From the IMG/VR virus record IMGVR_UViG_3300024262_000310: a stretch of 20,704 nucleotides of DNA; one strand, given 5' to 3'. Of this stretch, positions 11,583 through 11,954 are shown piece by piece. Made by a program: the position numbers and the translations under genes. The notes beneath the pieces are model-generated. The model had not been told where the DNA came from. It made no database searches and saw only the letters and a list, made by a program, of their open reading frames with translations. Every line of letters starts with the position of its first letter. Position 1 is the first letter of the stretch. The stretch comes from a virus.

Positions 11583-11954
11583 TTAACTTGCCGTTAATTG
11601 CTCGTTAAATTCCTTTAATGCTAATGGTAAATGACAGGTTAGTTTCCTGCTCATTTCAGAGGGCTGTACACAAAGCGCAGTAATTTCATTGCCGATATCG
11701 GGTTCCTTGAACACAACATGACACAAATTTGCTTTTTGAAATTTCTGAATGTACTTTTGGAGTTTTTCCTCATTTTCTACTGCTAGAATAATAAGATAGT
11801 TTGAGTTGGAATTCCACTCTTTAGCTAACTGAGGATGTTGATGCTGAAAATCAACTGCTGCGTGAGCTGACTGAACAGCTTGATAACCAGGAGATAGATC
11901 TCTCCTAGTGATAACGATTAATTTTTGATTAATCTAGCCAAATACGTCTTTCAT
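11583..11954 (-). CDS. PTH2-family peptidyl-tRNA hydrolase, interrupted by an in-frame TAG at codon 7
   Basis: ATG at 11952-54, then MKDVFG-TAG-INQKLIVITRRDLSPGYQAVQSAHAAVDF... to a TAA at 11583. The LIVITRRDL...GxxxAQxxHAA motif matches the PTH2 core (VLVVRTDL...GKIAAQCSHAA). No in-frame ATG lies between the TAG and the motif, which is why the ORF track omits it. Confidence 0.5.

Follow-up and report, generated by a model that had tools for sequence, protein, structure and literature searches.

Suppressor-tRNA gating proposed for a phage PTH2-type gene with a conserved amber codon in its leader

INTRODUCTION

Phages that read the amber codon TAG as sense and carry CUA suppressor tRNAs are well documented (10.1101/2021.08.26.457843; PMC9523058). 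In these code-15 phages (crAss-like, Lak and others), TAG is distributed across numerous late, structural and lysis genes, translation being blocked until a phage tRNA(CUA) suppresses the in-frame stop, and a role in regulating timing has been proposed. According to the preprint of Borges et al. (10.1101/2021.08.26.457843), the code-change module consists of tRNA, aminoacyl-tRNA synthetase and release factor, all written in the standard code; peptidyl-tRNA hydrolase goes unmentioned. Iyer et al. (PMC7824862) placed the PTH2 of jumbo phages in a ribosome-rescue context, with no reference to TAG or to a suppressor. Here we analyze a 20,704-nt stretch of viral DNA (IMG/VR record IMGVR_UViG_3300024262_000310), called the window throughout, in which a gene for a PTH2-type peptidyl-tRNA hydrolase-like protein is interrupted by TAG shortly after its start codon. 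Comparative data suggest that translation of this gene is probably gated by that amber codon, which lies in a short, unconstrained leader and would be read by the phage's own tRNA(CUA). A phage tRNA(CUA) and an in-frame TAG that would block translation until suppression are shared with the code-15 phages. Here, by contrast, one leader codon would gate one translation-factor-like gene beside the tRNA, and the arrangement extends to phages whose genes are otherwise in the standard code. Searches of the open-access literature found no description of an amber codon in a phage PTH2 gene or of a link between PTH2 and a suppressor tRNA, and the papers on phAss-1 and on theta ribozymes do not mention a phage PTH2.

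RESULTS

An amber codon separates a short leader from an intact PTH2 domain

The gene occupies 11583..11954 on the minus strand and comprises 123 codons, including the in-frame TAG. Its leader starts with ATG at 11954-11952, encodes Met and five further residues (MKDVFG, 11937..11954) and runs into TAG as codon 7 (11934..11936), the proposed translational gate, with ATT as the next codon. The minus strand reads ATG AAA GAC GTA TTT GGC TAG ATT AAT CAA AAA TTA ATC GTT ATC ACT AGG AGA GAT ... TAA. In translation this gives MKDVFG*INQKLIVITRRDLSPGYQAVQSAHAAVDF... in short form and, over 11954..11583, MKDVFG*INQKLIVITRRDLSPGYQAVQSAHAAVDFQHQHP...LTAS*, the part after the TAG amounting to 116 codons up to the terminal TAA (11585-11583). 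A PTH2 domain (residues 11-109, 11628..11924) was recognized by Pfam, by a structure model and by a profile search of the PDB. In-frame codons between the TAG and this domain include no ATG, GTG or TTG; the first canonical start in the frame past the TAG is a TTG at 11726, which would give just 47 residues. The sequence-only reading of this DNA, made before any database search, had described a PTH2-type gene with an in-frame TAG at codon 7, no usual start codon between that TAG and the domain and a CUA tRNA 0.6 kb away, and each of these points holds.

Immediately upstream lies a 66-codon open reading frame (ORF; 11957..12157, minus strand), whose TAA (11957-11959) abuts the PTH2 ATG with a gap of 2 nt (TAA-TT-ATG), a spacing that is the usual tight packing of phage genes. 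A promoter and terminator scan of 10800-12700 returned nothing beyond shuffled expectation, and no GenBank phage matched a 6-kb part of the window in a megablast search. A separate Joint Genome Institute (JGI) contig (L105; loci are cited by our own handles) is identical to part of the window, and on it the PTH2 gene was left uncalled.

The post-TAG protein belongs to the Pth2 family

With a cut-off of 23 bits, the Pfam match to PTH2 (PF01981) scored 42.2 bits (E = 1e-10) and paired residues 11-109 with positions 2-112 of the 115 in the profile. For the 116 residues after the TAG, AlphaFold2, given 40 homologues, returned a model with a pLDDT (predicted local distance difference test) of 94.7 and a pTM (predicted template-modelling score) of 0.87. 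Foldseek matched this model to archaeal Pth2 (2zv3, 3erj, 1wn2, 1xty) and human Bit1/PTRH2 (1q7s) in the PDB, with template-modelling (TM) scores of 0.72-0.77. The top 14 matches were all Pth2 or structural-genomics proteins of Pth2 fold (TA0108), at TM 0.55-0.77, and beyond Pth2-type structures this search gave no other significant match. A profile of the 40 homologues likewise retrieved Pth2 chains among PDB sequences (1rzw/3erj, 1.4e-10; 2zv3, 1.2e-7). On these models and matches, the assignment of the post-TAG protein to the Pth2 fold and family is sound.

The domain begins four residues past the TAG, with KLIVIT as its first beta-strand (model residues 5-10), so any start further downstream would not give a folded protein. 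Thirteen residues are invariant in the phage subfamily, among them the His of AHAA, the Asp of F-x-EPD, which aligns with the DAG motif of archaeal Pth2, and a downstream Thr. In S. solfataricus Pth2, the catalytic residues are reportedly Lys18, Asp86 and Thr90. The phage proteins form a distinct subfamily nearly restricted to phages, with a presumed activity as peptidyl-tRNA hydrolases. The window also encodes a second, divergent PTH2-like paralogue of 192 amino acids (950-1528, minus strand; RMYFFV..GIQAGHG..FREPDINNALTAV; PHROG 3668), which has an ordinary ATG and no TAG and matches the PTH2 alignment with an hhalign probability of 93.6%.

The leader TAG is conserved at one position across phage lineages

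To assemble homologous loci, we used PTH2 homology as the sole criterion, drawing more than 100 from IMG/VR, GenBank and assemblies. IMG/VR was scanned with the PTH2 alignment, and the loci of the best 80 of 221 relatives were used. GenBank phages were added by tblastn; matches were extended upstream in frame, with the domain position anchored by tblastn, and clustered at 80% identity. The additions comprised huge uncultured phages, Tenacibaculum phage pT24, Xanthomonas phages Xoo-sp13 and XacN1, Stenotrophomonas phage RAS14, GAP32, CBB, fHe-Yen9-04, Acinetobacter phage ME3, RaK2, Lak phages and cluster C mycobacteriophages.

A gated arrangement, in which ATG is followed by zero to seven codons, TAG and then the PTH2 domain, was present in 54 of the 60 clusters. 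The leader stop was TAG in all 54, never TAA or TGA; TAA is the dominant stop in the window (28 of 38 genes), and the related genomes are AT-rich. Leaders are 1-8 codons long, with the TAG two codons from the ATG in 32 clusters, three in 11 and four in 7; the commonest, Met-Lys-TAG, accounts for 25 of the 54. The base 3' of the TAG was A in 44 clusters, G in 9, C in 1 and T in none (P = 3e-13 against 33% A). An A in this position is said to favour amber suppression in E. coli (work attributed to Bossi, and to Miller and Albertini, both 1983).

Close orthologues make the same point at finer scale. In L002 (protein 85% identical), the gene opens ATG AAA GAC GTA TTT GGA TAG ATT AAT TCT AAA CTT ATC GTA ATT ACA AGA AGG, and its leader differs from that of the window by one synonymous change, GGC to GGA. 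Other relatives have ATG ACC TAG ATT (L106), ATG ACG TAG GTA (L107) and ATG AAG TAG ATT (L108). The TAG is thus invariant in every close orthologue whose DNA was read, while third positions around it vary; more widely, the leader sequence is not conserved and the ATG-to-TAG arrangement is.

For comparison, we examined 2534 ORFs of at least 90 codons from the same loci, scoring those in which an ATG preceded the bounding stop by no more than 8 codons and the first 12 codons contained no canonical start. This pattern was seen for 19 of 1424 TAA-bounded (1.3%), 14 of 547 TGA-bounded (2.6%) and 93 of 563 TAG-bounded ORFs (16.5%; Fisher P = 6e-37), and by eye about three quarters of the TAG cases listed were at the PTH2 position. 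The leader-TAG pattern is far beyond chance. An independent sample, one genome per species from GTDB, yielded 11 loci among 185,579 species genomes, all on phage-like contigs of metagenome-assembled genomes (MAGs), one of them 425,361 bp long; the gate was present in 9 of the 11. Exceptions in the main set were L072 and L073, which have no TAG, and RaK2 and the Lak phages, which have their own ATG. In L056 the TAG is present, a TTG start follows it, and none of the 20 tRNAs is CUA.

Protein databases mask this pattern. A protein search returned 145 homologues, many of which, on long contigs, had been called truncated at an internal Met. Full-length entries show Q in the TAG column, whereas homologues without the TAG also lack the leader and start directly at the domain. 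We rejected the Q as evidence for glutamine because it is circular: the DNA of P0001, P0003, P0007 and P0011 has TAG at this place, translated with code 15. Orthologues had been proposed as a check for a sense codon at this position; the close ones keep the TAG, and the apparent Q is TAG under another code.

Could the gene simply be a recently inactivated pseudogene, or the TAG a sequencing error? An in-frame stop at codon 7 would suit either, as would the habit of gene callers of skipping or truncating the gene; moreover, a close relative, L001, has lost the leader ATG. But independent assemblies agree on where the TAG stands, as do dozens of lineages down to 45% identity, finished genomes of cultured phages among them, the sequence is identical on the separate JGI contig, and the downstream ORF is intact and conserved, with its 13 invariant residues. 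Inactivation or error is therefore a highly improbable account.

A tRNA(CUA) accompanies the gated gene

A tRNA gene with anticodon CUA, a candidate amber suppressor, lies at 10927..11000 on the minus strand (ARAGORN; Rfam tRNA, 54.8 bits), on the same strand as PTH2 and 583 bp beyond its stop. Its acceptor, D and T stems are perfect, the anticodon loop is UUCUAGA and the discriminator is G73. Between the two genes lies a 129-codon ORF (11027..11416, minus strand), which appears in the ORF list, was called as a gene on the identical JGI contig and matched no family.

The pairing recurs in related loci. Within the flanks available, ARAGORN detected a same-strand tRNA(CUA) for 41 of the 54 gated clusters and for 0 of the 6 without a gate (Fisher P = 5e-4). 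Inclusion of the MAG loci gave 49 of 62 gated versus 2 of 8 ungated (P = 0.004). All 83 flanking tRNA(CUA) genes are on the PTH2 strand, in one of two architectures: most precede the leader ATG by 17-200 bp or lie 80-1600 bp downstream. In XacN1, the two CUA tRNAs sit in the terminal repeats. Most other CUA tRNAs appear, from their 3' ends read by eye, to carry A73, unlike the G73 of the window. Compared with other phage tRNAs as a guide to amino-acid identity, the suppressors gave best matches scattered over Met, Trp, Leu, His, Gln and others. L002, a close relative, has a CUA tRNA to which that of the window is not similar; apparently the tRNA was exchanged and the gate kept.

Several further RNA genes lie near these pairs. 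The CUA tRNA very often has a tRNA-Cys(GCA) directly beside it (e.g. L046, L057, L060, L062, L064 and L069), and phage transfer-messenger RNA genes occur within a few kb of the PTH2-tRNA(CUA) pair in L039/L040, L058, L061, L062, L065 and L092 (Bxz1). Directly after the stop of the TAG-less PTH2 of L072, ARAGORN reports an odd tRNA-like gene with a two-base 'anticodon' (ct; 10331-10404). Two Lak loci, Lak-B4 (L090, 5347-5419) and Lak-A1 (L096, 5239-5311), have a UUA tRNA, a candidate suppressor of ochre/amber type, about 600 bp upstream of a divergent PTH2-like gene with an ordinary start.

We also considered whether the leader stop co-varies with the suppressor anticodon. In Lak-B4, ATG AAT ATC TAA lies in frame upstream; Lak-A1 has no such sequence, and both genes have an ordinary ATG. 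Phage Atu_ph07, which has a UCA suppressor, encodes a PTH2 of the classical membrane-anchored kind, and the gene starts normally and lacks an early TGA. Comparison of the Lak phages and Atu_ph07 provides no support for a gate made from other stop codons.

Probable initiation at the leader ATG

Shine–Dalgarno (SD) elements, where seen, fit the leader ATG and not the post-TAG codon: AAGGAG with a 9-nt spacing in LR756501, AGGAG with 8 nt in Xoo-sp13 and AAGGA with 7 nt in RAS14. A different arrangement can nonetheless be envisaged, in which ATG-to-TAG is a separate mini-ORF and PTH2 is made by re-initiation, or weak initiation, at the non-canonical codon that follows, ATT in the window. Precedent for such a start exists, infC beginning at AUU. 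The Pfam domain begins after the TAG, and 35 of 54 clusters have a near-cognate or canonical start as the post-TAG codon (ATT in 27, ATA in 4, and ATC, ATG, GTG and ACG in 1 each). In XacN1, Xoo-sp13 and L084, an ATG occurs a few codons past the TAG. Mycobacteriophages Bxz1 and Myrna have the order (A/G)TG TAG GTG, with an SD spacing that favours the annotated second GTG; their CUA tRNAs lie 306 and 130 bp downstream, that of Bxz1 annotated merely as 'tRNA-like product', and we regard both cases as ambiguous.

These starts weigh against an amber gate, as does the missing leader ATG of L001, and further observations belong with them. Two MAG loci from GTDB, L115 and L119, carry a tRNA(CUA) yet start at their own ATG. 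Conversely, 13 gated clusters have no CUA tRNA in the available flank, several of these flanks being shorter than 1 kb. The archaeal catalytic Lys (GKGK/RGK motif) aligns with the Tyr of 'PGYQ' in the phage subfamily. Finally, the anticodon stem of the window tRNA(CUA) includes two non-Watson–Crick pairs, A.G and A.C, and position 37 is a G rather than an A; the decoding efficiency of this tRNA is therefore uncertain, a caveat for this particular phage.

Nevertheless, a separate mini-ORF is an improbable explanation overall. In 19 of the 54 clusters the post-TAG codon cannot initiate (ACT, ACC, ACA, AGC, AAA, AAC, AAT, AGA, GAC, GTA, GTT or CTT). Any stop could end a mini-ORF, yet TAG does so in every case, although these genomes use TAA by far the most. 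The mini-ORF shares the frame of PTH2 throughout, the SD sequences are placed for the upstream ATG, and the linkage to tRNA(CUA) would be left unexplained. Given the many non-initiating post-TAG codons and a leader that is without exception in frame and closed by TAG, a start at ATT following a mini-ORF can hardly be the general mechanism, although it may contribute in some lineages. Alignment to PF01981, suggested earlier as a test of whether conservation starts before the TAG, places the domain after it, which is part of what had been named as a refutation, but no canonical start follows and the ATG-to-TAG arrangement is conserved. From the three options offered by the sequence-only reading, namely readthrough, an unusual ATT or ATC start, or a fresh pseudogene, the comparative data strongly favour readthrough and make the other two unlikely.

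Probably one dedicated codon rather than a recoded genome

A broader possibility is that the whole phage uses code 15, in which case the leader TAG would be an ordinary Gln codon. Database gene callers already render it as Q, and three convincing TAG-ended genes of the window (149-646, 3136-3393 and 12585-15086, all on the minus strand) have a back-up TAA or TGA 4-5 codons further on. Such back-up stops would limit read-through extensions if a suppressor were active, which, for three genes, is only suggestive. Yet reading TAG as sense across the 20.7 kb of the window altered no other convincing gene; PTH2 alone needs TAG readthrough. Nor did the flanks of about 100 related loci contain an excess of TAG-interrupted genes: pairs of ORFs (at least 70 codons) joined by one stop numbered 119 for TAA, 66 for TGA and 40 for TAG, and the gain in ORF coverage from TAG as sense was no greater than that from TGA as sense. 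Within the PTH2 genes, TAG is held to one leader position; past the gate they contain 400 CAA/CAG Gln codons versus 4 TAG, so TAG is no mere Gln synonym there. Homologues without a leader have no conserved Gln in this place.

The gate is also found in phages that are not recoded. The 462-kb phage LR756500.1 encodes a PTH2 57% identical to that of the window, with the leader MK-TAG-IN, and 776 bp downstream lies a CUA tRNA; the 150 kb sampled from this phage contained 0 TAG-joined ORFs and had high standard-code coverage. Cultured jumbo phages annotated in code 11 have the same arrangement, namely GAP32, CBB, fHe-Yen9-04, ME3, RAS14, Xoo-sp13, XacN1 and pT24. Their annotations deal with it variously: GAP32_397 begins at an internal Leu codon, the PTH2 stretch of fHe-Yen9-04 is an unannotated gap, the annotated start of ME3 gp266 falls inside the first beta-strand, and the RAS14 gene starts from a GTG inside an HD domain. 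For XacN1, the authors recorded two CUA tRNAs and 18 amber-terminated genes and found no target gene (PMC5852040). Upstream of the annotated ATG of XacN1 ORF364, an HD-PTH2 fusion, we find MK-TAG-TIKAMKL.

Together, these data make genome-wide code 15 an unlikely explanation. The sequence-only reading had proposed stop-codon suppression or recoding in this element. Comparative evidence supports the former, as suppression of one dedicated codon; recoding of the whole element is not borne out, the other window genes and the related flanks being in standard code.

The HD-domain protein noted for XacN1 is a recurrent companion. It is fused to PTH2 in pT24, RAS14, Xoo-sp13 and XacN1 and encoded just downstream in the GAP32 group and ME3 (loci L093, L094, L095, L097-L099 and L102). 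In GAP32 (L098), CBB (L099) and fHe-Yen9-04 (L102), at ~3320-3900, a further conserved TAG (ELD[TS]G-TAG-GD) lies in frame within the HD ORF itself, which the annotations split into two or three fragments.

Other features of the window and of related loci

In four loci, the first ~25-30 codons of PTH2 run in frame into an ORF for an HNH and NUMOD3 homing endonuclease (L016, 9224-9997; L018, 1930-2690; L019, 1709-2450; L027, ~9246-9990). The fusion keeps the leader with its TAG, e.g. MK-TAG-VHPKLVVITRRDLSPGSQAVQAA..., so the endonuclease inherits the amber gate. A complete PTH2 with a diverged N-terminus (IKEKLYVIVRSDL...) follows the endonuclease in L016, where this was read; a variant N-terminus is also present in L001.

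The window contains a GOLLD RNA at 17334-17812 on the minus strand (Rfam RF02032, full-length model; 157.3 bits, gathering score 150), which explains the poorly coding stretch at ~16.4-18.6 kb. Inside it is a tRNA-like element (17670-17739, minus strand; Rfam tRNA, 45.5 bits), Leu(UAG)-like in relaxed ARAGORN, with a weak acceptor stem. An 833-amino-acid protein (12585-15086, minus strand) has major-vault-protein (MVP) domains (MVP_shoulder, 3e-28; Vault_3, 1.8e-11; Band_7), and its gene is syntenic with PTH2 in L001, L002 and L105. Another gene (4017-5729, minus strand) encodes a 570-amino-acid TROVE/Ro60-like RNA-binding protein (Pfam, 1.5e-8; PHROG 850, 2.6e-28). Thus two hallmarks of eukaryotic ribonucleoproteins, MVP-like and TROVE/Ro60-like, occur in one phage region together with tRNAs, GOLLD and PTH2. 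Further minus-strand genes encode a GIY-YIG and NUMOD3 homing endonuclease (5762-6388), a dCMP/cytidine deaminase (149-646) and a radical-SAM-like protein (19264-20283; PHROG 24834, 1.9e-145).

DISCUSSION

How would an amber gate work? Translation would begin from the ATG at 11954 and yield MKDVFG before the ribosome met UAG. If host release factor 1 (RF1) acted alone, termination would follow the hexapeptide and no enzyme would appear; across carriers, RF1 alone would release a peptide of 1-8 residues. Once the phage tRNA(CUA) had been transcribed, processed and charged, UAG could be decoded and full PTH2 made. Output of PTH2 would then follow suppressor-tRNA activity, as in a feed-forward gate, with the gene and its tRNA inherited together as a module. 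A leader variable in length and sequence would suit such a device, aborted attempts costing just 1-8 residues. Since the TAG lies in such a leader, the identity of the inserted residue need not matter, which fits the heterogeneity of the suppressor tRNAs (G73 versus A73, scattered isotype matches).

Two rationales for the gate can be proposed. Suppression that passes host UAG stops may cause extra drop-off and non-stop stalling, and the gate would match peptidyl-tRNA recycling to this load. Alternatively, it may delay the enzyme until the phage tRNA set is functional. We infer that the tRNA(CUA) reads the leader TAG and that the enzyme hydrolyses peptidyl-tRNA.

We lean, if only a little, towards a wider interpretation, in which the tRNA(CUA) and the amber-gated PTH2 form an autonomous, widespread module of phage translational control independent of genome-wide recoding, joined in some lineages by the HD-domain partner with its own conserved TAG. 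PTH2 would then be the long-missing target of 'orphan' amber suppressor tRNAs in cultured standard-code jumbo phages (XacN1, GAP32, CBB, fHe-Yen9-04, ME3 and pT24), and the module might be a pre-adaptation for TAG recoding of late genes.

What looks like a pseudogene would on this evidence be a conserved regulatory device, one amber codon in a disposable leader tying a translation-quality-control enzyme to a phage suppressor tRNA. It offers a concrete, testable target for amber suppressors in non-recoded phages such as XacN1, for which none was identified (PMC5852040), and direct tests of the gate should be feasible, since several carriers are in culture on tractable hosts. A peptidyl-tRNA hydrolase-like enzyme would also join the code-change machinery, so far tRNA, aminoacyl-tRNA synthetase and release factor. 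In addition, the comparison reveals that annotation errs systematically here: the GenBank records of GAP32, CBB, fHe-Yen9-04, ME3 and RAS14 and the identical JGI contig show the gene truncated or split, or lack it.

Among known systems, the code-15 phages share the CUA tRNA with this locus; the many TAG-interrupted genes that also define them are absent from the 20.7-kb window, the related flanks and the 150 kb of LR756500.1. Archaeal and eukaryotic Pth2 proteins (PDB 2zv3, 3erj, 1xty and, for Bit1, 1q7s) have the same fold and the conserved His and Asp of phage PTH2. They differ in having ordinary starts and the GKGK Lys, where the phage subfamily has an amber leader and Tyr. Readthrough of the Qbeta A1 type, in which a host near-cognate tRNA passes a terminal stop at low level to give a C-terminal extension, does not describe this gene: the stop is at codon 7 of 123, before the whole domain, with a dedicated tRNA(CUA) linked to it.

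The bar minigenes of phage lambda reportedly release short peptidyl-tRNAs that are substrates of Pth (work attributed to Hernandez-Sanchez et al., 1998, and related studies). Like the PTH2 leaders, they are ORFs of two to a few codons followed by a stop, a resemblance of form only. The minigenes stand alone, terminate with UAA or UGA and are toxic solely in pth-defective hosts, whereas the PTH2 leader is fused in frame to a hydrolase gene. A closer parallel in logic is prfB, the gene for release factor 2, said to have an autoregulatory in-frame UGA at codon 26 (a finding attributed to Craigen and Caskey, 1986). As in phage PTH2, an early in-frame stop lies in a gene of translation termination or quality control, and the fate of that stop reports the state of decoding and sets the gene's own output. 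The two differ in mechanism: prfB relies on a +1 frameshift and responds to its own product, giving negative feedback, whereas phage PTH2 would use in-frame passage by a dedicated tRNA, giving feed-forward control. Such feed-forward control has been engineered. In a synthetic loop for leak-free expression, an amber-containing target and an inducible suppressor tRNA are both needed for output (Nucleic Acids Res 2021, PMC7969014), and the phage PTH2 gate would be its natural counterpart.

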